From an uncultured Acidobacteriota bacterium (lineage in GTDB: Bacteria > Acidobacteriota > Thermoanaerobaculia > Gp7-AA8), in assembly GCA_963822445.1 (NCBI GenBank), contig CAWGHO010000003.1:1280001-1344000 (forward strand): 64,000 nt of DNA, read 5' to 3'. Every line of letters starts with the position of its first letter. The first letter of the stretch is position 1. Under the pieces are notes generated by a model that was not told the origin of the DNA, did no database searches, and saw only the letters and a program-made list of their open reading frames with translations. The translations under genes and the position numbers were made by a program. Shown piece by piece: positions 7,401-59,529 of this stretch.

Positions 7401-10400
7401 GTTGTTGGTGACGACGATCGAGTAGTCGGACGTTGCTCCGGCGACCGGGGCGAGGGTGTTGGTCACGCCGACGCTGAGGTCCGCGTTCGCCGTAACCGTT
7501 GCGGATGCATTCGCGGTGTTGTTCGCGCCGTTCGGATCGAACTGGCTCGCGGCGACGGACACGGTCATGGACGCGCTGCCGGCGGCGCTCGTGGCGACGG
7601 TGATGGTCACGTTGACCGTGGCCTGATCGGCGAGGTTGCCGATGGTGCAGGTCAGGTTCGGCGCGCCGGTGCAGATGGCCGGGCTGGCGCTGACGAAGGT
7701 CACGTTCGCCGGGAGCGACGCGCTGAAGGCGACGCCGGAGGCATTCGAGCCGCCGTTGTTCGTGACGGAGACGTTGTAGGTGAACGAGTCGCCGGTGTTC
7801 ACCGTCGACGGCGTGGCGGTCATGGCGATGGAGATGTCCGCCTGCACGGTGTTCGTCGTCAGCTGCAGATCGGTCGCGCTGTACGCCGGAATGAGATTCG
7901 TCCCGAAGCCGAGGTTCAGGCCGTTCTTGTTGGCGAAGTCGGTGTTGCCGGGACGCGACCCAAAGGTGAGGATCTGGAAGGTATTGCCCGAGGCGGGGAG
8001 GAAGCTGTTGATGGTGGAGATGTTCAGATCGCTGGCGAGCGTGACCGCGCCGGTGACGACGAGTTGGTCGTAGCCGCTGCCGGCGGTGGTGCCGCCCAGC
8101 TCGATGTCGAGCGTGCCGCTGCTGGACTGGGTGTAGGGGCCGGTGATGTTCAGCGTTCCCGCGGCGGAGGCGCCGCCGGGGATCACCGCCGCGCCGGAGT
8201 TGTTGACCGTCGCGGTGATGGTGCCGGTGCCGCCGACCGTTCCACCCTGGAAGGACATGGGCTGGGTGGCGGAGACGTTGCCGCCGGTGAGCTTCAGCGC
8301 GCCCGCGGTCTGGGTGAAGTTGTAGGAGTTGAAGGCCAGCGTTCCGGTCTGGCTTTCGACAGTGCCGCTGTTGTTCACCGTCACCGCCATCATCGAGGTG
8401 CCGGTCCGGCCGTTCTTCCGGAACATGCCGCTGTTGTTGAACGGGCCGCCGTTGGTGATGGCCTCGTCGCCGAGGAGCTCGAACGTGCCCTCGTTGTCGA
8501 ACTGGCTGCCGTCGGTGTAGATGTGCAGGTAGGGGTAGGTATTCGGATTCGACGTCGTCCCGTACTGGACGCTTCCTCGGTTCGTGACCGTGCGCCCGCC
8601 AGTGATGTAGGTGTAGGTGGTGCTGGGCATCGAGACGGTGGTGCCGGTCTCGAAGATGGTCGTGCCGGCGCCGGTCATCGAGCCGCCGGACCAGATGTGG
8701 GCCGTGGCGGTGCCAGTGGCGGTGACGGTGCCGGTTCCGCCGAGCGTGCCGTTGGACATCTTCAGGAGGACGGTGTTGGTGGCGGCGTTGAAGTTCGCGA
8801 TGCCGCTGGTGATCTCGATCTCGTCGGTGGTGACGGCCACGTTGAAGGTGTTCGTGCCGTTGGTGATTTTCGTCTTCGTGGTGCCGCTGGTGTTGTAGGC
8901 GGCGTCGACGACGGTCGTGCCGCCGCTGAGGAGCAGGGTGCCGCCGGTGTTGGTGATCGAACTGGCTGACTGGATAGCGTGCGCTCCGTAGCCGCCGAAC
9001 TGCAGCGTCGTTCCCGCGCCGATGTTGAACGGGCCGGTGTGCGTTCCGCCGCCGCCGTTGAAGGCGAGCGTGCCCGTGGAGACGCTGGTCGTGCCAGCAT
9101 TGTTGAACGTGACCTGGAGATCGGAGCTGTTGCCGCCGGTCTTGGTGACCGTGCCGGTGCCGGTGTTGGTGAACGTGCCGCCGTTGGTGATGCTCTCGTT
9201 CCCGACGAGGGTGAACGTGCCGTGGTTGGTGAGCGAGCTGCCGTCGTTGTAGATGTGCAGATAGGGGTAGTAGTTCGGATTGCTGGTCGTGCCGTAGGTC
9301 GTCGCACCCTTGAGGGTGAGCGCACGGCCGCTGGTGAGATAGGTGTAGGTGGTACTGGGCATCGACAGCGTGGTGCCGCTCTCGAAGATCGTGGCGCCGG
9401 CGCCGGTCATGCTGCCGCCCGACCAGACGTGGGTGGTGGCCGTGCCGTTGACGGTGACCGTGCCCGTGCCGCCGAGCGTGCCGTTGCTCATCTGGAAGCG
9501 CGTGGCCGTGGTGGCGCCGTTGAAGTTGCCGGTGCCGTTGGTGAGCTCGATCAGATCGTTGCTCACCGGCGTGTTGAAGGTGACCGTTCCTCCTGTCACA
9601 CGGGTTGTGGTCGAGCCGCTGGTCGAATAGGTGCCGTTGACGACGGTTGTGCCGGCGGACTGCTGAAGGGTGCCGTTGGAGGTGATCGAGCTCGCCGCCT
9701 GAACAGTATGCGTCCCGTAGCCGCCGAACAAGAGCGTGGAGCCCGCGGCGATGCTGAACGGACCGCCGTGCGTGCCGCCGCCGCCGCTGAGGGCGATGGC
9801 CCCCGAGGAGACGTTGACCGAGCCGTTGTTGTTGAACGTGACGGCGAGGTCCGAGGTGCCGGTCCCGGCGGTCTTGGCGAACGTGGCGCCGGGATTGTTG
9901 TTGAACGTCCCGCCGTTGGTGAAGCTTTCGTTCGCGATCAGCGTGACCGAGCCGTTGTTGTTGAAGGTGCTGCCGTCGTTGTAGATGTGCAGGTAGGGGT
10001 AGTAGTTGACGTTGCCGTTCGTGCCGTAGGTGAGCGCGCCTTTGTTGTCGAGCGTGCGGCCGGAAGTCAGATAAGTGTAGTTGGTGGTCGGCATCGAAAT
10101 AGTGGTGCCGGTGTCGAAGATCGTCGTGCCGGTGCCGGTCATCGTGCCCCCCGACCAGACCAGCGGGTTCACGGTGCCGGAGAGGGTCACCGTGCCCGTT
10201 CCGGCGAGCACGCCGCCGCTCATGCTGAAGCGCGAGGAGGCGGTTGCGGCATTGAAGATCGCGGTGCCGTTGGTGATCTCGATCAGGTCGTTCGAGACCG
10301 TGGTGTTGAAGGTGATGGTGCCGCCGATGGCACGGGTGGCGCTCGCGCCGCTGGTGTTGTAGGCGCCGTTGACGACGGTCGAGCCGCCGGTGTTGGTGAG

Positions 10401-47261: not shown

Positions 47262-48371
47262 GTGAACCGGACCACGGCACTCCTGCTCGAGAAATGGGCG
47301 ATCTGGATCTCCCTGATCGGCATCCTCTTTCTTCTCCGCCATCTGTTCCCGATCTTCTTCCTTACGTTCGTGCTCTCGTACATGGGCAATACGGCCGTGA
47401 ATGCGCTTTCGAAACGCTTCCCGCGCCGCAGACTGAACGTGGTCCTGGTTTACGCGACGTTTCTGGCGGTGCTCGCCGGCGTGACCGTGCTGGTCGTGCC
47501 CAGGATGCTCAACGAGGCCAGGGGGCTGGCGCGGCAATACATCGCTGCCGAGGCGGCTCGGGAGGAGGGTGGGGAGACATTCATCCGCCGGGAAGCGCGC
47601 GACCTCGTGGATTCGGTCGGTCTGGGCATCGCCGGTACGGAGACGTTTCAGGATTTCAGGCAGTCCGACGCGTACGTGGCCATCGTCGACCGGCTCGCGG
47701 AGGCGATGACGACGACCAGCCGCCGGATCACTGTCGAGGTCACGCAATTTGCGAACGTCGCGCTGATCCTGGCCTTTCAATTCGTCCTGGCGATGATCCT
47801 GTCGTTCGTGCTGATCTGGGACCTGCCGAAGATGAAGGAACGGCTCCGGCAGTTCTCGAAAGGCCGGACCGCTGAAATTTACGCCGAGATCACTCCCAGC
47901 CTCAGCGCGTTCGGAACGATGCTCGGCCGCGCGTTCGAGGCCCAGAGTGTAGTGGCCGTGGTCAACGCGATTCTCTCCGTAATCGTGTTCCTTCTCCTCG
48001 GCCTCCCCTCAATCGCGCTCCTGGCCATGATCGTGTTCGTCTGTTCGTACATCCCGGTCATGGGCATGATCCTGTCGACGCTGCCGGCAGCGTTTCTCGC
48101 ATTGAAGATAGGCGGCGTGACCCGTGTGCTGTGGCTCGTCGCCGGCATCCTGATCATTCACGCGATCGAGGCGTACATGCTCAATCCGCTGATCTATGGA
48201 CGGCACCTGCGGCTGCATCCGGTGGCCGTTTTGCTGATCCTGATCATTGCCGAACACCTTTTCGGCGTATGGGGACTGCTCCTGGGCGTTCCCATCGCGG
48301 CGTTTGTGGTGAAGTACGTGATCGAGGGGCAGCCGATCGGGCCTGCGGCGGAAGGTTCGGTAGCGGCCTAG
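47262..48371 (+). CDS. AI-2E (PerM/UPF0118) family transporter
   Basis: Multi-TM protein with SYIPVMG, IEAYMLNPLIYGRHLRLHPVAVLL....EHLFGVWGLLLGVP motifs. Confidence 0.92.
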   Translation: MNRTTALLLEKWAIWISLIGILFLLRHLFPIFFLTFVLSYMGNTAVNALSKRFPRRRLNVVLVYATFLAVLAGVTVLVVPRMLNEARGLARQYIAAEAAREEGGETFIRREARDLVDSVGLGIAGTETFQDFRQSDAYVAIVDRLAEAMTTTSRRITVEVTQFANVALILAFQFVLAMILSFVLIWDLPKMKERLRQFSKGRTAEIYAEITPSLSAFGTMLGRAFEAQSVVAVVNAILSVIVFLLLGLPSIALLAMIVFVCSYIPVMGMILSTLPAAFLALKIGGVTRVLWLVAGILIIHAIEAYMLNPLIYGRHLRLHPVAVLLILIIAEHLFGVWGLLLGVPIAAFVVKYVIEGQPIGPAAEGSVAA

Positions 48372-48425
48372 GTTTTCGCTCGGTCGCGGTCACAGAAATG
48401 AGAGCTCTTTTAGTCGGTGTCTCCG
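48318..48425 (+). repeat. 108-bp direct repeat, left copy
   Basis: Aligns without gaps to 50328-50435 with 9 mismatches by manual count. Spans the convergent AI-2E/archaemetzincin stop junction. Confidence 0.92.
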
Positions 48426-49625
48426 TTAGCGTTTCTTAGCGTGCTCCTCGAGGTCTTCCAATGTGCCCTTGAAGGTGAATGTGATTGTCGATCCACCGTC
48501 CTTGACCTCCTGCTCGAGCGACACACGCGACCAGCCGTGAGGAAGTTGCTCGAACTTCGTCAGCCAGAGAGGGTAGGAACCGAACGTGTCGTCGAAGTTC
48601 GCGTTCCACGAATCAGTCGTCACGTAAATGAACGGACGCTTTCCGGTGAGCTGCCGGATTCGGTCGAGGTATCGATGCAAGCGGGCACTGAGGTCTTTCG
48701 TTGGTTGATTGCCGCTTTGAAGCGGCGATACGTTCACTCCTAACAGCACGTCGTACTCCGACGGTTTGACAGTCTGGATGAATCGGTCCGCTTGTGCTAT
48801 CGGATCGCGTATGTCGTATAACACCTGATAGGCTCCGCCAATCAGATTTCGAGAGCGCACTTCCTCCCGCATTCGCGAAAACTCCGGTTGATCGGCATCG
48901 ACGAAGGCGAAGGACACATCTCGTAGCTCCGGATTGGCCCAATCACGGTTCTTCATATATCCGACGTCGACTCCCACGGGGTTGATTGTCGACACCAGTG
49001 GTGGCGACGGTGAAGGCGCGCGTCCGGTATTGGACGTATCGGTCCCTACATCGGCGCCCACCCATTTCTTCGTGGCCATGAAGACCAAGGCCAGCGCCAG
49101 CATCACCGCGAGAGCTGCAAAGACGGTCCGTTGCGTGAACAGCGGCGACGGGTTCCGCTTCTTCCGTCGCACGATCTCCTTACGGATTGACTTGGCGAGA
49201 TGCTCATAATCGGCACGCCAGTGACGGTCCGTCATCTCCATCATCTGCCGGCCCAGGAACGACTTTAACTCGCCCGGCAGAACTGCGGCACTTGGCAACG
49301 TGGCGTCGTTGACGAGCACTGGAATGATCCGCACGTCGCGTTCGAGCGCGCTGGAGATCTCGCGGCGCACGATATCCTCCGGATCGGCCAGCCGAGCCGG
49401 CCGCCAGTTGGTACCGATCATGACTATGAGCGCCGCACACGATTCGAGCCGCTCATCGATGACCTGCTTCCAGTCGTCCCCTGCGTCAATGCCACCGCCG
49501 CGGTCGAAGAACACGTTGTCTTCGCCGAAGTCATTGCACAAGGCGTCGTTCAATCGCCCGGCGTACGCTCCAGTATCGTCGCGTCGATAGCAGATGAAGA
49601 TTTGCCGGGCCGGTCTAGCTCGCAT
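48426..49625 (-). CDS. TIR domain - transmembrane helix - GH25 muramidase-like domain with degenerate catalytic residues
   Basis: TIR: IFICYRRDD...FGEDNVFFD...IDAGDDW...VRREI..AL...IIPVLV. TM: TVFAALAVMLALALVFMAT. GH25-like: GVDV..DW...VSFAFV...GAYQ...AQADRF...TGKRPFIY...W...F.SYPLWL. Start taken at MRARP (49625). Confidence 0.85.
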   Translation of the reverse strand: MRARPARQIFICYRRDDTGAYAGRLNDALCNDFGEDNVFFDRGGGIDAGDDWKQVIDERLESCAALIVMIGTNWRPARLADPEDIVRREISSALERDVRIIPVLVNDATLPSAAVLPGELKSFLGRQMMEMTDRHWRADYEHLAKSIRKEIVRRKKRNPSPLFTQRTVFAALAVMLALALVFMATKKWVGADVGTDTSNTGRAPSPSPPLVSTINPVGVDVGYMKNRDWANPELRDVSFAFVDADQPEFSRMREEVRSRNLIGGAYQVLYDIRDPIAQADRFIQTVKPSEYDVLLGVNVSPLQSGNQPTKDLSARLHRYLDRIRQLTGKRPFIYVTTDSWNANFDDTFGSYPLWLTKFEQLPHGWSRVSLEQEVKDGGSTITFTFKGTLEDLEEHAKKR

Positions 49626-49697
49626 CAGGGTTTCGGTTCGACGTTTACCACATTGTCGATCGGAATCACAGTTCAGGGAACCTGCGGAGGACGATCG

Positions 49698-49770
49698 GGC
49701 CGACGGATGATGTAGGCGCTTTAGCGCCGCACCGAAGCCGAGCCGCGACGCCTTCTGGCAGTAGTTGAGC
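49698..49770 (-). mobile_element. Degenerate, shortened attC site of the same family as those at 53.6-56.3 kb
   Basis: + strand end CTTCTGGCAGTAGTTGAGC matches CTTCTGGCAGTAGTTAGGC of the 56145-56343 site. The other end, GGCCGAC, matches the 53651 copy. AGGCG/CGCCT can pair. Confidence 0.6.
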
Positions 49771-49907
49771 GCCGGCCGAACGGAACCACTTCTTCGTGGC
49801 CTCAGCGAGTTCCGGTCGGCGGGGCTCAAGCGTCACGACGATCGGGATGCTCACTTTCCTTCTCGCGCAGGTACTTGCACAAAGCCGCCAGGGCCACCAA
49901 GAAATAG

Positions 49908-50282
49908 TCAAGGCTCGAAATCAGGGTCACCCAGTTCAATGTAGCGGCGGAAGCGTCCGTCTACAAAGATAATCTCGCAGTCGAAGCTGTCCGTCACACC
50001 CGATGGGTCAAGGCAGGCCTGCAGCGTGGTGGGAGTCTTATCGCTACCGAGGCTGACCAATTAGTAGCTTCGACCTTTCGTCGTGACGACGTATGGGGTA
50101 CCCCACGGATCCTCGATTGGAAGAGCTGTACCGAGCAATCTATTCGCGTGCGCCACGCCCGAGAGCGTCGGATACCCATTTACTGTCGACAGAACTGCCG
50201 CCTTCCAGGACCGTCGTCGAACGAGCACGTAACCAGCCACCGCAGGAATGATCACGAGCGCTATCAAGACCGCGAAAATCAA
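49908..50282 (-). pseudogene. GspG/pseudopilin-like C-terminal-domain gene remnant with an in-frame stop
   Basis: Reading through the TAA at 50061-50063 gives LPIEDPWGTPY...GRSY*LVSLGSD...TDSFDCEIIFVDGRF. The 5' end is truncated. Confidence 0.55.
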
Positions 50283-50327
50283 AGGATATGTGATGGCCGA
50301 ATATTAGCGTGGCGTACCGGTCTGGCA

Positions 50328-50435
50328 GTGATCGAGGGCCAGCCGATTGGGCCTGCAGCGGAAGGTTCGGTACCTGCCTAGGTTTTCACTCGCTCGCGGT
50401 TACAGAAATGAGAGCTCTTGTAGTCGGTGTCTCCG
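50328..50435 (+). repeat. 108-bp direct repeat, right copy
   Basis: See 48318-48425. Confidence 0.92.
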
Positions 50436-50980
50436 AGGGAGTTCGAAAAGTGCATGACGCACGTTCGATCGGGACAGTGGGCGAATCCGAAGGTGTGGCC
50501 CAACTCGTGAGCGGTCTCCTTGACGACCCGCTCGCGAAGCCGGCCAGGATCTTCGGGCCATCCTCGGAATGACTCGCGAAGACGCGGCAGAGCGACCACT
50601 GCGAACCGGCCCGGCTTCTGGGCCTGGCCGAAGATGAAGTTGAGCCCTGGCGCGTACGCATCGGCATCGATGATTCCGACGATCCGATCGGCATCCGCAA
50701 CGTCCTGCCGCGCGAGGTCTTCGAGAAGAGCGGTCCCTCGATATTGCCGCCGCGACGGATCGAGCGCTTGTTCGGGGAGAGGCACCGCGGCTCCGACGAC
50801 GACGTCCCGTTTCACGATCGCCGGTAACTCTCTCTGCAGATGGCTCAGAACATCCTGCGGAACTGGTCCAATGGGGATGATGACGATGCGGCGCGACACC
50901 TGGCGATCGTCGCCCGAACAGCCGATGAGGGCAAGAACGACGACTACGAACCGCGCAATGCGCCCGGGGATGTTCGTCAT
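50378..50980 (-). CDS. Archaemetzincin-family (M54) Zn metalloprotease, predicted lipoprotein
   Basis: RRQY, DAYAPGLNFIFGQA, HELGHTFGFAHC...CVMHFSNSL.DTD.K..FC motifs. Lipobox LIG-C follows MTNIPGRIARFVVVVLA. Confidence 0.9.
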   Translation of the reverse strand: MTNIPGRIARFVVVVLALIGCSGDDRQVSRRIVIIPIGPVPQDVLSHLQRELPAIVKRDVVVGAAVPLPEQALDPSRRQYRGTALLEDLARQDVADADRIVGIIDADAYAPGLNFIFGQAQKPGRFAVVALPRLRESFRGWPEDPGRLRERVVKETAHELGHTFGFAHCPDRTCVMHFSNSLGDTDYKSSHFCNRERVKT

Positions 50981-51083
50981 GGAATGATGACGCTTACGGA
51001 CGATTACAGGTTTCGTCCTGCCTCGGCCACCGCAAGAAATCGATATAACAACCATCCGTTGGTGATGGGGCGATCAGCACCGC

Positions 51084-51245
51084 ACCAAGCGGTGGCATCC
51101 TGCCCTGCAGCATTCCGTGAAGCGTTCCGGGACGATACAGATCGAAGTAGTCGCCGTAGACGTAACAGAACATCACGCTCACCCATAGACTGGCAATCTT
51201 CAGTCGCACGGATGCAGGCGCGTCGTGAAGCGTGTTCGATTTCAT
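51084..51245 (-). pseudogene. N-terminal fragment of a DUF6326-like membrane protein
   Basis: MKSNTLHDAPASVRLKIASLWVSVMFCYVYGDYFDLYRPGTLHGMLQGRMPPLG, after which the similarity is lost. Confidence 0.6.
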
Positions 51246-51298
51246 GGGCTTCCGGTCGTTACGGTGAGGTGAGACCAGCGCGGATGAAGCCAGGCAGC

Positions 51299-51949
51299 CT
51301 ATGTGTCGGCAGGCGCGTCGTCCCAGTCCATGACCTGCCGATCGCATATCCATTCGAGCGCCTTTCGGCGTTCCACGATGACATCGAGGTTGAAGACGCC
51401 GGTATCGTAACCCCCTAGTTGCCCGTCGCGCGCGTACCAGTGCGCACGGTAATACAAGTCGAGCATCGGGTAAATCTGATCGAAAGGACGGAGAGAGAAG
51501 CGAGCACGAAACCGTTCCCCGGTTTCGCCGACCTGCAGATTCGGAAGTAGCGACGCCAGATGGTCACCCACGGGCTGAGGGATCGGAACGTCCGGTATGA
51601 GCTGGCCGGCCCACACCAGAGTCCAGAGAGATTCTACGTACCAATAGAGATCGACCTTGTCCTGTTCGCTCAACTGGGCGTTCGATCTCCGAAGAATCTG
51701 CGACTCACGCCGGGAGAGAGAACCTCGAAGACCATTGGATGTGATCCACCCGTCGATGACGTTTATCGGCGCGCCAAAGTAGATCTGCAGTAACGCATTC
51801 ATGACCAATGCGCGATCGGCGACCTGTCCGGATTCGCGCGGCTGCGTCCTGTCGAGCCAGGGGAGCGCGTCGAGAACCTCTCCTCCCAGGGTTCGGATGA
51901 TGCGCTCGGATTCCGCTTTGACGTCGTGAGGCAGGGTGCTGTTTGCCAT
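51299..51949 (-). CDS. DUF4272 domain protein
   Basis: LP.L...R....VADRAL, W.VESLW.L.WA, LDLYYRAHWYARD, VIVERRKALEW, WDD...DT motifs. Confidence 0.85.
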   Translation of the reverse strand: MANSTLPHDVKAESERIIRTLGGEVLDALPWLDRTQPRESGQVADRALVMNALLQIYFGAPINVIDGWITSNGLRGSLSRRESQILRRSNAQLSEQDKVDLYWYVESLWTLVWAGQLIPDVPIPQPVGDHLASLLPNLQVGETGERFRARFSLRPFDQIYPMLDLYYRAHWYARDGQLGGYDTGVFNLDVIVERRKALEWICDRQVMDWDDAPADT

Positions 51950-52012
51950 GCGCGAATGTTCGCACGACGGCAGGTCGCCGTCAGAGAACGTCTATGCCTC
52001 GAGATGCACCCG

Positions 52013-53482
52013 CTATTTTCTCACCGACCGACGACGCGGCCGGTCGTCGTCATAGAGCGTCAAGGTCAGGATGTTGGTCTCGAGGACGGAGCCGCCGGTC
52101 GGACTCGCCAGCGTGATGATGACGGTCTTCGAGTCGCCGATTACTTCGTTGTTGAAGACCGGAACCGTAAACGTCTTGCTGGCGGCATCACCATCAATCC
52201 AGCTCAAGACACCGCTCACACTCTGATAGTCGATCCCATCTACAGCGGTGCCGCCCGTGACGGCATACGCCACGCTCACCGCGCCGTCGGAGCCGTCGGT
52301 TCGCTGCACCTCGATGGTGGCGCTGCCGGCGCTCTCTACGACGCTGAACGCCGGTGATGAAAAGGACAGCGTTCCAGGTACGGGATCCGCCAATCCGACC
52401 GCTGGCCGGTACACCTGGTTGAGAGTGCTGCCGGAGCTGCCCCCGATACCGGTGCCGCCACCGGTCGCCCAGATCAGACCGTCCACGAAGGCTGAGCCGA
52501 CAATGCCATGAACCGGGATAGGCATGTCGGGGAGTTCTGTCCATGTGTTGGTCTGAGGGTTGTAGTAGTCATGGTCGGGGAACATGCCGGCCGGCCCCTC
52601 GCCGCCCCAGATGTGGAACAAACCGCGGGCCATGACCCCGTTCATGCCGCTGCGGGGTTCCACCATGGGGGCGGCGGTCGTCCAGCTTTGCGTTTGAGGG
52701 TCAAAAACTTCGTGCGCGGTCGTCATGAGGGGCGACAATCCATTGCCTTGCCGCCCGCCGACGTAGTGGATGCGGCCGTTGATCGCCGCGCCGGTGAAGT
52801 GGTTGCGCTGCGTGGGCAGGTTCGGCAGCACCTGCCAGGTATTGGCCGCCGGGTCGTAGACGGCGAAGTCGGATCCACGCGGCAATCGTCCACCGGCGAC
52901 GTAGATCTGGCCGTCGTGCACAACGGCAACGCCGGAGCTGCGCGCCGTGGGCATCGGGGCCTTCGTGACCCATACACCGACGGCGGGATCCAGTTCGTAG
53001 ACGGTGTTCACGTAGCTGTTCGTGTTCGGGGGGTCATCGGCGTTCAACTGGCCGCCGAGGAGGTAGATCTTCCCGTTCACGCTGGCCGCCATCCCGTGGT
53101 TGTTGGGCAGCGGGAGCTGTGGACCGTAGGCCCAGCTGTCAGTGGCGATGTCGTAAATCTGGACCGTACGGGCGGTCACCCGATTCGGCGGATAGCCGCC
53201 CATGAGGTAGAGCTTGCCGTTCGCTTCCGCGAGGGCCAACTCGGAGAGGGGTTCGAGCGTCGAGGCTCGCATCCCCCATTCGCCGGGGGCCGGCTGCTGC
53301 GCTGTCGCCGCCGAGGCGAGGCCGAGCAGTGCGAGGCACGGAGCGATGCGGACGAGAAGCCTCGCAGCGCGAGATGTACGAGAACCCAGTTCAATGACGC
53401 GCCGACGATGAGCAACAACGGCGCTGGTGGCGTCGATCGAGACAGCAGCAAACCTGTTGGTTAGAGTGGCCATTGTGCGCAT
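52013..53482 (-). CDS. Secreted Kelch beta-propeller plus Calx-beta domain protein with a C-terminal RRRSVRK tail
   Basis: Six Kelch-type blades (GKLYLMGG...YD..TD.W...P) and a Calx-beta domain (LSFSSPAFSVVESAG.ATIEV.R..G..GAVSV.Y...GTA..G.DY). The start is uncertain; signal peptide ...LLGLASAATA. Confidence 0.88.
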   Translation of the reverse strand: MRTMATLTNRFAAVSIDATSAVVAHRRRVIELGSRTSRAARLLVRIAPCLALLGLASAATAQQPAPGEWGMRASTLEPLSELALAEANGKLYLMGGYPPNRVTARTVQIYDIATDSWAYGPQLPLPNNHGMAASVNGKIYLLGGQLNADDPPNTNSYVNTVYELDPAVGVWVTKAPMPTARSSGVAVVHDGQIYVAGGRLPRGSDFAVYDPAANTWQVLPNLPTQRNHFTGAAINGRIHYVGGRQGNGLSPLMTTAHEVFDPQTQSWTTAAPMVEPRSGMNGVMARGLFHIWGGEGPAGMFPDHDYYNPQTNTWTELPDMPIPVHGIVGSAFVDGLIWATGGGTGIGGSSGSTLNQVYRPAVGLADPVPGTLSFSSPAFSVVESAGSATIEVQRTDGSDGAVSVAYAVTGGTAVDGIDYQSVSGVLSWIDGDAASKTFTVPVFNNEVIGDSKTVIITLASPTGGSVLETNILTLTLYDDDRPRRRSVRK

Positions 53483-53650
53483 GGAACCGCGAGTTTAATC
53501 TCCGGTCCCGCCTCGCCACGGATTCACATTGGTTACAACCTGCTACGTGCGCTGGGCTGCCCGATCGGATCACAGGAACGACCGACGCTGAGCATTGCGA
53601 GTACGCGGAATTCATGGAAGCGTGCAATACGCGTCACCTGTAATTCGTCC

Positions 53651-53836
53651 GGCCGACGTCTGTCGCCTAAGCTGCGGCGAGCCCCACGCGCGTGCGGGCA
53701 GAGCGGCACGCCGGTCGCCGCGATTGACGTCGACCGATCTGCGAGCGGCGTGCCGCCGCGCATCTTGAAAGAATCGAGGGGCTTCAGCCCCGGGCGCGGT
53801 AAACGGGTCGCTGACGGTTGCTGGCAGGACTTGGGC
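53651..53836 (-). mobile_element. Long attC site with degenerate core boxes (186 bp)
   Basis: + strand GGCCGAC-GTCTGTCGCCTAAGCTGCGGCGA ... CTGGCAGGA-CTTGGGC. Internal stems are homologous to the other copies. Confidence 0.75.
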
Positions 53837-53907
53837 GGCTTTGTCACGGTCTACCCGGACTTGATGTTTCGGGTAGGGATAAATCGTCCGGCGTCACTCC
53901 TATCGAT

Positions 53908-54939
53908 GTGAGCGATGACATCGATCGAAGCTCCATCGCCGAGCAGATCCGCGATGTGCTTCAGAACAACTACAAAGACGTGCGCCACGTTGAGCTTGAG
54001 ACCGCCGCGGCAATCGCGAACCGCGTCATGGGTTGGGCGAAAGTCTTCGGCTTCTTTGCCGGTATTCCACTCGTGCTAATCGCAGTGTGGCTTGGCTGGA
54101 TCGGTTACAAGTCGATCAGCGATTTGGAAAAGCTCCAGGACCAGATTGCCGCGTTGCAGACCGACGTCATATCCAAACAGGCGCAGCTAGCAAAGCTAAA
54201 GGAGCTCGACTCGCTCGAACAGCGGCTAACAAGTCTTGCCACTCGAGTGAAATCGCTCGAAGTGAAATTCAGCGGCTCGGCGGACGTCGGAACCGACGCA
54301 AGGCGCCGTATCGAAGACGTCCTCACTCGATATCAGGCTCATTTCGCCTCCCTCGGGGTCCGTTTCGCCGCGAATCAGGAAACGAACATCCGCATTGAGA
54401 AGTCAGACGTGATGGCCGAGAAGAATTCACTCGCGTATTACGATCCGGAGAAAAATGAGATGGTCGTCAGTGAAGACTATATCGCTAACGACGACGTCGT
54501 GCTCCGCGAGTATACGCACCTCGTTCTCGCGCTCGCAAATCCAGACGCAAAAGCAATGGGCACGCCGAATCTCTATGCACTCGAATCTGGTCTCGCTGAC
54601 TACTTTTCGCGAAGCTTCGCTGGCTCTCCCGCATACGAATCGCTCCCTGAACGCACTCTCGCGAACGACTTGAAAATTCGATCTGCGCGCGACTTCGCTG
54701 ACGCGCACACCGTCGGATTGGCTTGGGGTGCATTCGCGTGGGACTTGCGAGAAAAACTGGGCACAGAAGCCACCGACAGGCTCCTCTTGGAGGTCTGGAA
54801 AACGCCCGGGTGGAGTCGCGCGTCCAATCTCGTCGAGAGCTTTGTAACCGCGCTCTTCAATGTTGATGACGTCTTCAACGAAGGCGCGAACGAGAAATTA
54901 CTCCGGACTCTGCTTGTGAAACACGGCGTCGTGGACTGA
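53908..54939 (+). CDS. Cassette gene: TM helix + coiled coil + gluzincin (M4/M36-like) fold with altered zinc ligands
   Basis: AYY...DVVLREYTHLVL...ALESGLADYF...H..G.AWG...WDLREKLG. The ORF track starts at 53818, inside the attC, so GTG 53908 is more plausible. Confidence 0.75.
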   Translation: MSDDIDRSSIAEQIRDVLQNNYKDVRHVELETAAAIANRVMGWAKVFGFFAGIPLVLIAVWLGWIGYKSISDLEKLQDQIAALQTDVISKQAQLAKLKELDSLEQRLTSLATRVKSLEVKFSGSADVGTDARRRIEDVLTRYQAHFASLGVRFAANQETNIRIEKSDVMAEKNSLAYYDPEKNEMVVSEDYIANDDVVLREYTHLVLALANPDAKAMGTPNLYALESGLADYFSRSFAGSPAYESLPERTLANDLKIRSARDFADAHTVGLAWGAFAWDLREKLGTEATDRLLLEVWKTPGWSRASNLVESFVTALFNVDDVFNEGANEKLLRTLLVKHGVVD

Positions 54940-54985
54940 TACGGCCGAGGGATGTCGAGTCGTGTACTCTGCTCGTCTCGGGTCC

Positions 54986-55180
54986 GCCCAACGTCTATCG
55001 CCTCAGCGGCGGCGAGGCCCCGCGTGCCTACCGGGAAGCGGCGCGCCGCTTGCCGCAACTAACGAGATGTCGGCGGGCGCGATCTGCAAGCGGCGTGACG
55101 CCGTGCATCTTGGGACGAAACAGGGGCTTCAGCCCCGGGTCAGCGAACGGCCCGCCGTCCGCTGCTGGCAGTAGTTAGGC
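54986..55180 (-). mobile_element. Long attC site (195 bp)
   Basis: + strand GCCCAAC...CAGCGG-CGGCG...CGCCG-T-CCGCTG-C-TGG-CAGTA-GTTAGGC, i.e. RYYYAAC/GTTRRRY cores with paired arms and extrahelical bases. Confidence 0.88.
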
Positions 55181-55224
55181 GGCGCCTATACTTGAATCCG
55201 TTCGCGGAGGCGCGACGTTAAATC

Positions 55225-56034
55225 ATGACAGATTCTTCAGTTCTGGAGACGGTTGTGGATGCGGCTCGTCGCCCGGTGATTCCGCTGTTTGCCGCTCGTA
55301 GTCGCCGGCGTTTCGAACACGTCGGTTCCGCCGTTCTCGTCCGAACACGTGCACGTCGATTTGTGATCGTCACGGCCGGTCACGTGCTCGATAACGTAAT
55401 TCCAGATCCGCTTCTGACATGGGGCACGTCCGAGTCGGGTGCGATCCGCCTGCGGTACCGCGACGCGCTAACTAGTGAACCACGCTCGTTCAGACGCCGT
55501 GCCGATCGTGTCGACCTGGCAGCCTTCATCCTCGATGATCGTACAGCCGACAGGCTTAGTTCCATCGGTGCCGTTTTCGTGTCGGAACTCTTGTTCACCG
55601 ACCGTATCAACACTGAGGCGATCTACGCATTCGTAGGATACCCGCGCTCAGTGAACAAGGTTGACCGCGTTAAAACGGCCGGTGGACGCCTCCGGCAAAT
55701 GCTTCCAAATACCGCCGCGTTCATGCCGGCGCAGGCATCCGAACAAAGGGCGTACGAACTTGTGAACGCGATCGCAAGTGTGAACTTCGTTGCGCGGTTT
55801 GATCGTGATAACTCCCAGCGATACGACGACGCGCGAAGGCCTCTACCCGACCCCAACGGAATGAGCGGCGGAGCTGTGTATTGCTTCGGGAACTCCGTCG
55901 CCGATGATTGGTACGCACTCGATCATTTACAGCTTGTGGGTGTTGGCACGGAGTACCACCGACGCGAACGATTATTCGTCGCAGCGAACTCGCGTGCGGT
56001 TCAGCACTTGCTTCGCGCACTTGATCAAAGCTAA
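55225..56034 (+). CDS. Cassette gene: trypsin-like serine protease, no signal peptide
   Basis: Catalytic triad motifs GSAVLV...VTAGHV, VDLAAF, VGYP and PNGMSGGAVY, LVGV..EY. Confidence 0.85.
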   Translation: MTDSSVLETVVDAARRPVIPLFAARSRRRFEHVGSAVLVRTRARRFVIVTAGHVLDNVIPDPLLTWGTSESGAIRLRYRDALTSEPRSFRRRADRVDLAAFILDDRTADRLSSIGAVFVSELLFTDRINTEAIYAFVGYPRSVNKVDRVKTAGGRLRQMLPNTAAFMPAQASEQRAYELVNAIASVNFVARFDRDNSQRYDDARRPLPDPNGMSGGAVYCFGNSVADDWYALDHLQLVGVGTEYHRRERLFVAANSRAVQHLLRALDQS

Positions 56035-56144
56035 CGATCCGATCGCACGCGAACCGCAGCAGGAAATGACCTTGAGCGGCCTCCATGTTGGTCCATTCGC
56101 GGAGCTTCATGGAAGCGTGCGAAAACACAACTTTTGATTCGTCC

Positions 56145-56343
56145 GCCTAACGTCTGTCGCCTAAGCTGCGGCGGGTGCGCGAGTGCAACCGGCTGAGCGG
56201 CGCGGCCGTTGCCGCGACTAACGCCTTTTCAGGCAGGAGCGATCTGCAACGGCCGTGACGCCGCGCAGATTGGAGTCGGCCGAGTCGGCTCGGCCGACGG
56301 GCCACGGAGACAGCCCGCCGACAGCTTCTGGCAGTAGTTAGGC
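56145..56343 (-). mobile_element. Long attC site (199 bp)
   Basis: + strand GCCTAAC...AAGCTG-CGGCGGG...CCCGCCG-A-CAGCTT-C-TGG-CAGTA-GTTAGGC. Confidence 0.9.
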
Positions 56344-56379
56344 GGCTCCATTCATACTAAACAGTGTCGTAAGCGATCC

Positions 56380-56895
56380 TTAACGCGAAATACTTTCCGG
56401 GAAACACTGAATGACGACCGCGAGCGCCACGTCCGCCACAGCCAGAACTACTGATAGCGCAACGTTCAAGCGAGCGGCGCGAAACGGGGCCGGCCATTGT
56501 GGACGAGGCGCAAGACGGAAGGGCTTGACCGTCGGATCGCCGTGATCGTCGCCGGTTCGGCGAAGTAATTCAGAAGGGACGCCTTGCCCGATGTACTTCT
56601 TCGAGAGCTCGTAACCAAGCCACGTGAGTAAGTGGCCGTTGGCATCTCGAATCTTCGCATCGCGGAGCATCATAAAGACGAGTGCGATCGTTAGAATCGC
56701 CGCGGCGACGAGTAACACCGCGGAGAGCCAGTCGGTTCGAAGAGAAAGTGCTCCACCGAGTGCACCGGCTTGAATCGCGAGTATTATTTGCACCCGACTC
56801 CACATGAGCGCGTCCTGATGACAAAAGTGCGCCATCAGAGTTGCGAACAGATTGGCGTCGGGCTCCGGTTTGTTTTCCGGTGATGCGTTGGTCAT
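56380..56895 (-). CDS. Cassette gene: small 3-TM membrane protein (RipA/SLATT-like layout)
   Basis: HF.HQD.LMWSR...ILAIQAGAL followed by two TM segments, a soluble loop and a C-terminal TM segment. Confidence 0.7.
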   Translation of the reverse strand: MTNASPENKPEPDANLFATLMAHFCHQDALMWSRVQIILAIQAGALGGALSLRTDWLSAVLLVAAAILTIALVFMMLRDAKIRDANGHLLTWLGYELSKKYIGQGVPSELLRRTGDDHGDPTVKPFRLAPRPQWPAPFRAARLNVALSVVLAVADVALAVVIQCFPESISR

Positions 56896-57122
56896 CGATC
56901 CTCGCAGACGGCAACGACGGTTCCATGAATTCTAGCGAACGTTGCGGCCAATCGAATGGGCGATTACCTATTTTGACACAATTGCGCATTTCGGTTGTTT
57001 GGAGCTGGTCTGCCGGAGCGATTGCGCTGCCTTGCCTGGTAGGATAGGACGATTGGCTCGAACAAGCGTCTGTCACGCGCTCGGACGAACGTCGGGCCAC
57101 CTCTGGATTCTCGCTCCAGTCC

Positions 57123-57141
57123 GCCTAACTCCTGATTAGCC
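57123..57141 (-). mobile_element. attI-like simple site heading the cassette array
   Basis: Minus strand GGCTAAT-CAGGA-GTTAGGC: inverted 7-bp boxes with a 5-bp spacer and no attC hairpin. Confidence 0.6.
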
Positions 57142-57210
57142 AGCGTAGCCGGCCCCCGGCGTCCACTCGGGTTGGAGGCAAGGTAGCAGCCGACGGTTAG
57201 CGAACGCGTC

Positions 57211-59529
57211 TCACCACGGCGCGTAATACCCAGCCGGTGCTCGTACCTCGCGACCCCGCCCGGCCACATCGACGTCGATCGTCCGCCAGTCGTTCTCACT
57301 CCTGCCTGGATCGGTGCGAATCACGACCAGGGATTGCGCACGCAGGGCGGCGGCGATCTTCTCGTATACCTCGGGGAGCTCTGTGAGGTTGCGGAGGGAA
57401 TGGGTGTTGCCGCCGGTCGAGCGGATCACGTTTACGAAACCGGCGAAGTTGATCGACCAGGAATCGCCGGCGACGGACTGCACCGTGAAACCGTCGCGGG
57501 AATTGGGGCCGGCCGCGCGCGTGGGCGCGTTGGCGAAGGGGCGGGCGGTGGGTGGGGCGGCGATCAGGTAAATGGGGATGTTGCTGCGCCTGGCCAGGTC
57601 CTCGACGTGTTTCGTCTCGTAGCGGCTGACCCGGTCGTCGCCGTCGCTGAAGACGATCATGGCTCGCCGGCCTTTGATTCCTTCGAATTGCAGGAGGCCG
57701 AGGATCATGGCGTCGTAGAGAGCGGTATCGCCTTGTGTGCGCAGCGCCATGATCTTGTTGCGCAATAAGGCGCGATCGGAGGTTGGTGTCTGAATTAAGC
57801 GCGCTGTAGTGTCGAACGTAATCAGAAAGGCGCGGTCATTGGGGCCGAGGGCTGTATCGAGAAAGCGGATGGCGGCTTCCTGCACGTCGAGCAGGTTCTT
57901 GTACATGCTCCCGGACGTGTCGAAGACGAGGCCCACCGTCAATGGGGCGTCGCTCCCGCTGATGACTGACTCAATGGCGCGTTTCATCCGGCCTTCGCGG
58001 ACCGTCACATCCTTCGTCGTAAGGCGGACAGGGGCGCCGTCATCCGTGATCGTGACCGGAAGCTCGACGAGCAGCACATTGGACTGCTCGACGTAACCCG
58101 TCGTGTTGAGCAGCACCGCGTCTTCCGTGGTGCGGCCATCATCGAGCTCCGCGACCGCTTTCAGGATTCCGAGCTCCGTCGGGATGCGAACATCCGCTTG
58201 CCAGGGCTCTCTGGTGATCACCGCGCGTTCGGCGTCATTCCAGGAAACGACCACGCGTTTCACATTACGGCCGGCCGGCGCGCGCATGGTCGTGGTCACG
58301 CGCACATTGCCGCTGGCCTTGCCCGCTCGCGGCTCGATCAGCCGGAGCCAGAACATGTCGCCGGCATGGTTGACGGTCAGCTCATGCCGCCCGATCTCTT
58401 TCCCCTTCACGTTGAATGCGACGGCACGAATGGTTTTCGCCTGCGGGATGCGCCCGAAATCGACGCTCGTCGAAAACGGCGGCCGATCGACAGCCGCTTT
58501 CTGATCGCCGTCGACGGTGAACACGACCCGCGCGACGTGGGTCGACGAAACGGAGGTCAGGATGCGCTGCGGTCCGGTGACGATCTGTTCCTGCGGCGGA
58601 ATGATCCGGATCGGCGTCGACTGCGGAGCTGCGGCCGCCGGCTGGAGCGACGCCAGGGCCTCGCTGGCGCTGGCGCGCGTGCCGCTGCCGCGCGGCGCGA
58701 GCTCGATCGCTTTCCTGTACGCCTGCGTCGCTTCATCGGTTGCACCTGCACTGCGATGAATGGTCGCGATTCCCATCCACGCCGTCGCAGCCGCCTCGGT
58801 ATTGCTCGCGTTGGCGGCCAGCGTCTGCAGGGACTGCAAGGCCTCGCTTCGCTTCGGCCCGTTCGAGTCGAGCATGGCCAGCGCCACGATCGCCATCTCC
58901 CGCGTGGACGCACTTCCGTGCAAGCTGGCGCGCTCGATGGCGGCGCGACCTTCGTCGCCGCGTCCGAGGATGTACAGGGCGGTTGCCAGTTCGAGCTCGC
59001 CTTCATGCGGACCTTTGGTTTCCGCGAGCGCGGCTGCGTTCTCGAGATTCGGTTTGGCCGACACGATGCCGTCGAGCATCGCCGCGAAGACGGTGTTGTC
59101 GGCCGGAAGTCCTCCGAGCCTGGCTACGGGTTTCCCGCGACGATCGTGCAGAACCAGGTCGCTGATCTGCATTTCCGGCGGCCCGAAGAGCGGCCGCGTC
59201 ACGAACACGATCTCGGCCAGACGCCGCTGAACGCCGGGGTGTTTCAGCAGTTTGTCTTCGAAGTCGGCGCAGCGGCGTTGCGCCTTGCACTTGGCCGGTT
59301 TCTCGAAGAGCAGGATCGGCTTCTTCTCGCGTCCGGCGCGCTCCAGCGCCTCGCGCCACGAAGCATCGGTCGCGGGATCGACGGCCGGAGGCTCGGCTTC
59401 GACCTCGTCATCGCTCTCGTCATGGATCTCGATCTCGCCCATCGAGACCGCCGGCTTCGGCGCGGGCTGCTGTGCGGGAAGAGGAACGGCGAATATCGAA
59501 ACGAGAACAGCGACTGACCAGAGTCGCAC
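57211..59529 (-). CDS. Secreted VWA-domain protein (thioredoxin-like + TPR + Ig + acidobacterial-type VWFA)
   Basis: Signal peptide; A.REKKPILL thioredoxin-like region; TPR helices; MIDAS motif DTSGSM, then TALYDA, SDGDD and TGG. Confidence 0.88.
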   Translation of the reverse strand: MRLWSVAVLVSIFAVPLPAQQPAPKPAVSMGEIEIHDESDDEVEAEPPAVDPATDASWREALERAGREKKPILLFEKPAKCKAQRRCADFEDKLLKHPGVQRRLAEIVFVTRPLFGPPEMQISDLVLHDRRGKPVARLGGLPADNTVFAAMLDGIVSAKPNLENAAALAETKGPHEGELELATALYILGRGDEGRAAIERASLHGSASTREMAIVALAMLDSNGPKRSEALQSLQTLAANASNTEAAATAWMGIATIHRSAGATDEATQAYRKAIELAPRGSGTRASASEALASLQPAAAAPQSTPIRIIPPQEQIVTGPQRILTSVSSTHVARVVFTVDGDQKAAVDRPPFSTSVDFGRIPQAKTIRAVAFNVKGKEIGRHELTVNHAGDMFWLRLIEPRAGKASGNVRVTTTMRAPAGRNVKRVVVSWNDAERAVITREPWQADVRIPTELGILKAVAELDDGRTTEDAVLLNTTGYVEQSNVLLVELPVTITDDGAPVRLTTKDVTVREGRMKRAIESVISGSDAPLTVGLVFDTSGSMYKNLLDVQEAAIRFLDTALGPNDRAFLITFDTTARLIQTPTSDRALLRNKIMALRTQGDTALYDAMILGLLQFEGIKGRRAMIVFSDGDDRVSRYETKHVEDLARRSNIPIYLIAAPPTARPFANAPTRAAGPNSRDGFTVQSVAGDSWSINFAGFVNVIRSTGGNTHSLRNLTELPEVYEKIAAALRAQSLVVIRTDPGRSENDWRTIDVDVAGRGREVRAPAGYYAPW

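Follow-up and report, generated by a model that had tools for sequence, protein, structure and literature searches.

Long-form attC sites with a conserved multi-hairpin interior in an integrase-less array of an uncultured Acidobacteriota bacterium

Introduction

The attC sites of integrons are quoted with a length range of 57-141 bp, chromosomal sites being mostly 120-129 bp long, and with a terminal structure that ranges from 3 nt to the branched form of the Vibrio cholerae repeats (VCRs) (PMC5027507, PMC5371416). Terminal structures of 20-100 nt are also given, and site homogeneity is highest in the largest arrays (Cury 2016, PMC4889954). On the attC bottom strand, RYYYAAC lies at the 5' end and the 3' arm carries extra-helical bases at positions 16 and 23/24 with a 6-bp stem between them (Nivina 2016, PMC5027507), and attC sites generally have been described as preferring to fold on the bottom strand (PMC5027507). 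At least two attC sites without an integron integrase nearby are called a CALIN, a cluster of attC sites lacking integron-integrases (Cury 2016, PMC4889954; PMC9024848). Here we describe three elements, called E1, E2 and E3, in a window of 64 kb from an uncultured Acidobacteriota bacterium (G000:C3:1280001-1344000, the whole stretch of DNA that was analysed). They are a known kind of element, attC sites in a CALIN, in an unusual long form of about 1.4 times the quoted maximum, and not a new system.

Several described systems are close to this one. The family resembles the VCRs in its lineage-specific homogeneous sites, its very large sedentary chromosomal array and its long branched terminal structure, and also in bottom-strand recombination, predicted here, with extra-helical bases setting the strand choice (PMC5027507, PMC5371416). 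Unlike the VCRs with their about 120-129 bp, the sites here measure 186-201 nt, and their interior consists of two to three defined hairpins, including a bulged stem whose sequence is conserved across at least 21 genera. The integrase gene here is oriented towards its array, unlike that of the V. cholerae superintegron. In this it is similar to Treponema integrons, where intI is transcribed towards attI and the cassettes (PMC3607928); in the present genome intI is on the + strand, and the open reading frames (ORFs) of the cassettes downstream are mostly co-directional with it. The Treponema attC sites, however, are 63-132 bp long (with 'long' ones of 115-132 bp), and their hosts belong to a different phylum (PMC3607928).

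The Acidobacteria attC model of Ghaly 2021 (PMC8352920) likewise represents a taxon-specific attC type of soil bacteria. Its model description sets it apart, with 106 consensus positions, 120 sites and a maximum window of 247. Since 106 positions compare with roughly 199 positions and a conserved interior here, that model, as described, does not cover the long family. The 1.1-Mb replicon of Gemmatirosa kalamazoonensis KBS708 has the same arms and the same layout downstream of intI, with 34 matches on the - strand in 20 kb, but its sites are 96-132 nt long and without the long bulged hairpin. The Gemmatirosa kalamazoonensis integron is among the largest found by IntegronFinder 2.0 (PMC9024848). 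No description of an attC site of about 200 nt was found in the literature covered on attC length and on Acidobacteria and Thermoanaerobaculia, a coverage outside which most subscription journals lie.

Results

Three long attC sites in the window

The three elements and their parts are given below. Lengths are counted from core 7-mer to core 7-mer, and the scores are those of a covariance model, R1, with 199 positions and 52 pairs.

53651..53836, + strand (bottom strand): E1, attC site of 186 nt, R1 score 143.5 bits
54986..55180, + strand (bottom strand): E2, attC site of 195 nt, R1 score 196.8 bits
54986-54992: R' box of E2
55038-55104: inner bulged hairpin of E2
55123-55136: side hairpin of E2
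55158: extra-helical T of E2
55159-55164: 6-bp stem of E2
55165-55166: CT loop of E2
55174-55180: R'' box of E2
56145..56343, + strand (bottom strand): E3, attC site of 199 nt, R1 score 192.3 bits
56145-56151: R' box of E3
56197-56264: inner bulged hairpin of E3
about 56274-56297: long side hairpin of E3
56321: extra-helical A of E3
56322-56327: 6-bp stem of E3
56337-56343: R'' box of E3

Coordinates and lengths reproduce those of an initial annotation made from the sequence alone, and its proposal that the elements are attC sites longer than the quoted 57-141 bp is borne out. Aligned end to end, the three copies have a mean column identity of 79%. The core boxes of the type RYYYAAC/GTTRRRY read GCCCAAC/GTTAGGC in E2 and GCCTAAC/GTTAGGC in E3. 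Both boxes are mutated in E1, the last site of the array, which reads GAC for the conserved AAC and CTT for GTT; its 6-bp stem is weakened and its interior is intact. Because GAC and CTT stand in place of the AAC/GTT core, we regard E1 as a decayed member of the attC family. With both conserved triplets gone, E1 has probably lost recombination.

The stems and motifs named in the initial annotation were compared with the three copies. The outer stems AAGCTG/CAGCTT of E3 and CAGCGG/CCGCTG of E2 are present, but the partner CGGTTG of E1 leaves one mismatch and two wobbles. Similarly, the inner stems are correct in E2 and E3 and contain one mismatch in E1. Both types of side hairpin were recovered. 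GATCT is found in E1, E2 and E3, though its middle T is variable across the family (98 copies), and ACTAACG occurs in E2 and E3 but reads ATTGACG in E1.

A 19-nt pattern of the right end has three exact matches in the window and one more with two mismatches, compared with a mean of 0.13 and a maximum of 1 in 100 shuffles. Folded with DNA parameters, E3 reaches -69.9 kcal/mol with a z of -6.1 (opposite strand: z -5.96).

A genome-wide family and its integrase

The integron integrase gene of this genome (G000:C2:2118113-2119048) encodes 321 aa without stops and matches TIGR02249 with 456.4 bits (cut-off 265). This is the sole TIGR02249 match above the cut-off in the genome and lies on another contig than the window. 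The nearest named IntI relatives come from Acidobacteriota metagenome-assembled genomes (MAGs), with 66-71% identity. A nucleotide profile built from the three elements (nhmmer) gave 134 matches genome-wide. The main array holds 87 full-length copies between C2:2120564 and C2:2226592, about 106 kb, with one copy per cassette; it begins 1.5 kb downstream of intI and its sites are 0.28-3.5 kb apart. Together with intI it spans G000:C2:2118113-2226592 (loci L009-L014). Smaller clusters without an integrase are found at about eight further loci, one of which is the window. As the window has three attC copies and no integrase, the above-cut-off TIGR02249 match being on the other contig, we define its array as a CALIN, which is small and decaying.

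The window and 14 further stretches fetched from the genome contain 98 full-length R1 copies. The matches are 188-203 nt long with a median of 199, which corresponds to 186-201 nt from 7-mer to 7-mer.

The interior fold is conserved and covaries

Read from the outside in, the consensus fold consists of the R box, a 3-nt bulge with two 3-bp steps (the central spacer), a 6-bp stem and a 9-bp stem. Past the 9-bp stem there is a multi-branch junction with a small hairpin, a hairpin of about 70 nt and a side hairpin of 14-24 nt. The 70-nt hairpin carries a 4-nt internal bulge and a 3-nt bulge. Pairing was counted in three sets of copies:

This genome, 98 copies: 92.5% of cells paired against 81.8% when shuffled; both partners changed in 32 of 52 pairs
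17 other species of the genus, 61 copies: 92.1% against 77.5% when shuffled; both partners changed in 35 of 52 pairs
13 genomes of other genera, 33 copies: 93.1% against 78.0% when shuffled; both partners changed in 32 of 52 pairs

None of the shuffles reached the observed pairing in any set (0 of 500 for this genome), counts that are not probabilities because the alignments were fitted to the model structure and the copies are related. Sliding the 3' partners by 1-3 columns lowers the pairing to 26-49% over the three sets, and to 30-47% in this genome. Every helix is backed by pair counts in the three sets. The covariation that had been claimed from three sequences thus extends well beyond them, and the compensatory changes in the three sets uphold the claim that the interior is selected for pairing.

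Wobble pairs are distributed unevenly between the strands. On the bottom strand, the ratio of G:T to C:A in the interior pairs is 178:9 in this genome, 97:21 in the genus and 67:7 in the other genera; a small number of fixed columns, passed on to many copies, account for much of this excess. The G:T excess therefore points to an interior tuned to fold on the recombining strand, and the asymmetry fits a role of the interior as part of attC itself.

Parts of the 70-nt hairpin are conserved in sequence. Its five basal pairs never have a change on both sides. The bulge with its flanks, CGTGACGCC, shows little or no variation among the copies of this genome and a conservation of at least 90% in the other genera, and T126, G127 and C129 are invariant in 98 of 98 copies. 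In the upper stem, 7 of 11 pairs covary. Hence the interior is conserved in both sequence and structure across genera, unlike the poorly conserved terminal structures of classical sites.

The recombining strand

The AAC/GTT columns are paired in 97-98 of the 98 copies. Position 23 from the 3' end is filled in all 98 (A 51, T 33, C 11, G 3), and its partner columns are gapped in 78 of them. Positions 15-16 are CT facing a single T, and exactly 6 bp separate the two extra-helical features in the 98 copies. By their positions 15/16 and 23 and the 6 bp between them, the extra bases match the attC geometry as given in PMC5027507.

To calibrate the strand we scored the aac(6')-Ib attC site of a class 1 integron with R1, which gave 18.4 bits on the bottom strand, opposite to the gene, and 8.9 bits on the other strand. 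In the main array 84 cassettes were examined, of which 46 have one dominant ORF and 38 are ambiguous. The dominant ORF is co-directional with intI, and thus opposite to the R1 strand, in 35 of the 46 cassettes and runs against the array direction in 11; among the ORFs supported by Pfam, 17 of 20 are co-directional with intI. In 70 of the 98 copies the model strand has the more stable fold, by 4.0 kcal/mol on average with RNA energy parameters, and the three copies of the window behave alike. It is also the purine-richer strand (GC skew +0.03, AT skew +0.06 over the 98 copies), and the ratio of G:T to C:A over all its pairs is 296:44.

From the class 1 calibration, the ORF directions, the extra-helical geometry and the fold stability and purine content, we conclude that the + strand of the window is the recombinogenic bottom strand, and therefore that the window array runs from right to left. 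The opposite assignment, with the + strand as the top strand, was dropped, as intI and the cassettes would then converge, unlike in any known integron. The elements of the initial annotation are real, but the strand on which it had read them, together with two of the cassette ORFs, is the bottom strand.

Distribution and origin of the long form

In a draw of relatives, R1 matches were found in 22 of 24 genomes of the genus and in 1 of 16 genomes from other families, where the match was weak (G030). In a sample of the order, with E-values up to 1e-6, 72 of the 117 further genomes from the same family had matches, covering 21 of 43 genera, one of which rests on G075 alone. Many of these family-wide matches are full-length with 185-200 nt. 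No R1 match was found in the three genomes of this sample that belong to two other families. The tallies include genomes flagged as unpublished, namely G002 and G030 in the draw of relatives and G002, G041, G075 and G083 in the order sample.

Integrons beside related IntI genes in other phyla have arm sequences in common with the long sites, and their sites are just 60-136 nt long. One Thermoanaerobaculia MAG has a site of 136 nt with the side hairpin and without the long hairpin. The small clusters of this genome also hold sites of 109-144 nt that have the same arms and lack all or part of the interior:

L022:2871-2979: short site
L018:1969-2079: short site
L016:3693-3824: short site
L022:2290-2433: short site

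These short sites either arose from longer ones by deletion or represent an older, short form. Because shorter sites with the same arms exist, the long type looks like a stepwise elaboration that became fixed in one bacterial family.

The p-element, a second carrier of the bulged hairpin

A GC-rich repeat of 330-350 nt without R boxes, which we call the p-element, is located 70-100 nt after an attC site, at the 5' start of cassettes with unrelated ORFs. It contains the bulged hairpin of the attC interior in the same orientation and with compensatory differences. A hairpin of about 50 nt in the p-element also has clear compensatory changes. Eight full copies are in the main array; G023 and G024 also have full copies, and G007 and G013 partial ones. 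No Rfam family matched the p-element. It may be an undescribed structured element or an attC derivative. Its places are:

L011:200-560: p-element
L011:7890-8270: p-element
L011:13900-14300: p-element
L011:18870-19260: p-element
L012:18650-19050: p-element
L013:9250-9640: p-element
L014:8080-8470: p-element

Cassettes and surroundings of the window array

Besides the three attC sites, the array region of the window comprises the following features, from its upstream end to its far left:

57119-57129, + strand sequence: lone core half-site GTCCGCCTAAC, upstream end of the array and fourth copy of repeat family D5
56344..57129, - strand: cassette ending in E3, with a forward ORF of 171 aa at 56380-56895 (-)
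55181..56144, - strand: cassette ending in E2; its only long ORF, 55225-56034 (+), 269 aa, runs against the array and has no Pfam family
53837..54985, - strand: cassette ending in E1; its only long ORF, from 53818 or 53908 to 54939 (+), 343-373 aa, runs against the array
53502..53650, - strand: remnant of a cassette 5' start beyond E1, which resembles the start of the cassette after E3
49637..49773, + strand: degenerate attC remnant, 16 bits in an unfiltered R1 search (E 0.025) and a pattern match with two mismatches

The 171-aa ORF has no Pfam family, and the coding part of its cassette has a DNA counterpart of 77% identity in G001, with no attC site in common. The ORF ending at 54939 has only weak Pfam matches of the coiled-coil type, all under the cut-offs. 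A search for the window cassettes in 34 further genomes of the genus gave a DNA relative for the 171-aa ORF alone, and no direct evidence for cassette movement.

The stretch beyond E1 is 80% identical to attC-adjacent DNA of G011 (G011:C402:2754-2975, with the attC site at L150:1651-1849), and a 15-mer is common to 53611-53625 and 56106-56120. In the remnant at 49637..49773 the side hairpin and the right arm are still recognisable; this is weak evidence, which suggests that the array may formerly have extended further to the left. The G+C content is 0.55-0.63 over 48000-57200 and 0.60-0.68 to its right. In the part to the left of the array with lower G+C (48426-53482) there are four genes on the - strand, encoding a fusion of TIR and glycoside hydrolase 25, a peptidase M54, a DUF4272 protein and a Kelch/Calx-beta protein. 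These four genes may be former cassettes whose sites have decayed.

Contents of the main array

Pfam families were found in 20 of 38 dominant cassette ORFs of the main array that were scanned. Among the cassette genes are many of defence type: TIR_2 (six times), CAP12/Pycsar TIR, Mrr_cat (twice), Abi_C, DndB, AAA_15/AAA_21, FRG and Hjc. Chromosomal integrons have recently been viewed as stores of anti-phage systems (bioRxiv 10.1101/2024.07.02.601686), and the many defence-type genes of the main array fit this view.

A candidate attI crossover, GTTAGGC on the cassette strand, is located at L009:7405, about 350 nt past the intI stop, in the stretch L009:7058-8560. With this position as attI, the first cassette would consist of a reverse ORF of the glyoxalase family (7542-8048) and a GntR-like N-terminal fragment. 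One site of the main array is inverted (C2:2205449-2205646). A short cassette without an evident ORF is present in about 12 copies, some of them in tandem (e.g. G000:C2:2155130-2155610), and is built from about 290 nt at 65-69% G+C and a 191-192-nt attC site of a distinct sub-family. Three oversized cassettes (G000:C2:2201748-2204391, 2211839-2213767 and 2219491-2221467) contain the same 311-aa ORF, which occurs on both strands and may be an insertion sequence within the array.

Discussion

We consider it highly probable, with a probability of roughly 0.85, that the elements are attC sites with a lineage-specific, elaborated terminal structure and the predicted bottom-strand substrates of the genome's own IntI. 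Each site would be a hairpin of single-stranded DNA that ends a cassette and that IntI would recombine on the bottom strand, the + strand of the window. The outer 45 nt or so on each side would form the canonical integrase-binding part, made up of the R box containing the AAC cleavage triplet, the partly paired spacer, the L-box region with one extra base, the 6-bp stem and the second extra base. The remaining 130 nt or so would be the variable terminal structure, arranged as a multi-branch junction of the small hairpin, the roughly 70-nt hairpin with its conserved 3-nt bulge and the 14-24-nt side hairpin. Local hairpins may fold fast on single-stranded DNA and so keep the long interior compact. 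Such compaction would bring the distant arms together and favour folding of the bottom strand over that of the top strand.

Several observations weigh against this interpretation. The sites measure 186-201 nt and are thus outside the quoted 57-141 bp, a range that is descriptive rather than a mechanistic requirement. At the extra-helical positions the sites have C/T and A/T where G and T are usual, and the central spacer is partly paired with a 3-nt bulge in one arm. E2 folds with DNA parameters at only -55.9 kcal/mol (z -1.5), and 13 of 200 shuffles folded equally well. The base of the long hairpin and the bulge CGTGACGCC are conserved without covarying, which a purely structural role does not need, and the bulged hairpin occurs also in the p-element, a repeat free of R boxes. 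To these points are added the dependence of the shuffle counts on model-fitted alignments, the few inherited columns behind much of the G:T excess and the compaction step, which we infer rather than observe.

The conserved bulge raises the question of whether attC function is the only one. The sites could be attC sites in which the bulged hairpin is selected separately, as a binding platform for some factor, of the host or associated with the integron, by which folding, recombination or array stability would be controlled. The lower stem and bulge, near-invariant in the 98 copies and at least 90% conserved in other genera, next to a covarying upper stem argue for this, as does the same hairpin with compensatory changes in the p-elements of the main array, G023 and G024. 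However, no candidate partner or accessory gene was found beside intI, whose upstream neighbour is a gene of the trehalose synthase/maltokinase type, and the integrase is of ordinary length at 321 aa. The sequence conservation could also stem from the copying of a few master sites at cassette making rather than from selection on each copy, and all p-elements may derive from one decayed attC site. A second function of the interior is therefore possible, but we hold the separately selected platform to be unlikely. A touch less likely again is the bolder form of the idea, in which the hairpin would act as an autonomous module and have a partner of its own (a host protein, or IntI in a second binding mode), carried by the attC sites of the entire family and by the p-element as a non-recombining cassette leader.

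Considerably less probable is an action of the interior as RNA, for example as an element of cassette transcripts that acts in processing or stability or as an insulator. The structure is strong and conserved in the three copy sets, attC sites are transcribed within arrays and the p-element sits at the 5' start of cassettes, all of which would suit an RNA. But the wobbles are on the bottom strand, so that sense transcripts of forward cassettes would carry C:A mismatches there, and no T run follows the hairpins on either strand. Rfam searches gave no family for positions 52000-58000 of the window (E up to 1) and one sub-threshold match in 40 kb of the main array (26.8 against 45 bits). The initial annotation had also considered a nested mobile element, for instance a palindromic element similar to miniature inverted-repeat transposable elements or repetitive extragenic palindromic sequences that was inserted into an ancestral attC site. 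The modularity of the interior speaks for this, as shorter sites with the same arms occur here (109-144 nt) as well as in other phyla (60-136 nt). Against it, a whole-genome search with a profile of the interior only gave 108 matches, of which 97 are inside full attC copies, 10 in attC remnants or p-elements of the array and a single weak one (E 0.0015) outside integron contexts. Since only this one match lies elsewhere, the interior is not a dispersed element. Neither terminal inverted repeats nor target duplications were seen at the interior junctions in the alignments, and compensatory change keeps the pairing across genera. We therefore reject the nested mobile element, which has the lowest probability of all the explanations considered.

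Read as attC sites, the elements extend the accepted size and architecture of attC by sites of about 200 nt that are common to a family of soil bacteria. In the classical view the terminal structure varies and the integrase does not read it; in these sites the interior is conserved, covarying and made of several hairpins. Size limits and generic models may under-count such arrays in cassette surveys of soil metagenomes. The family also offers a natural system for asking what role a long terminal structure has in folding, strand choice and array stability. If the bulged hairpin were indeed a module of its own, it would add a layer of control over site folding or cassette stability that is absent from classical integrons.

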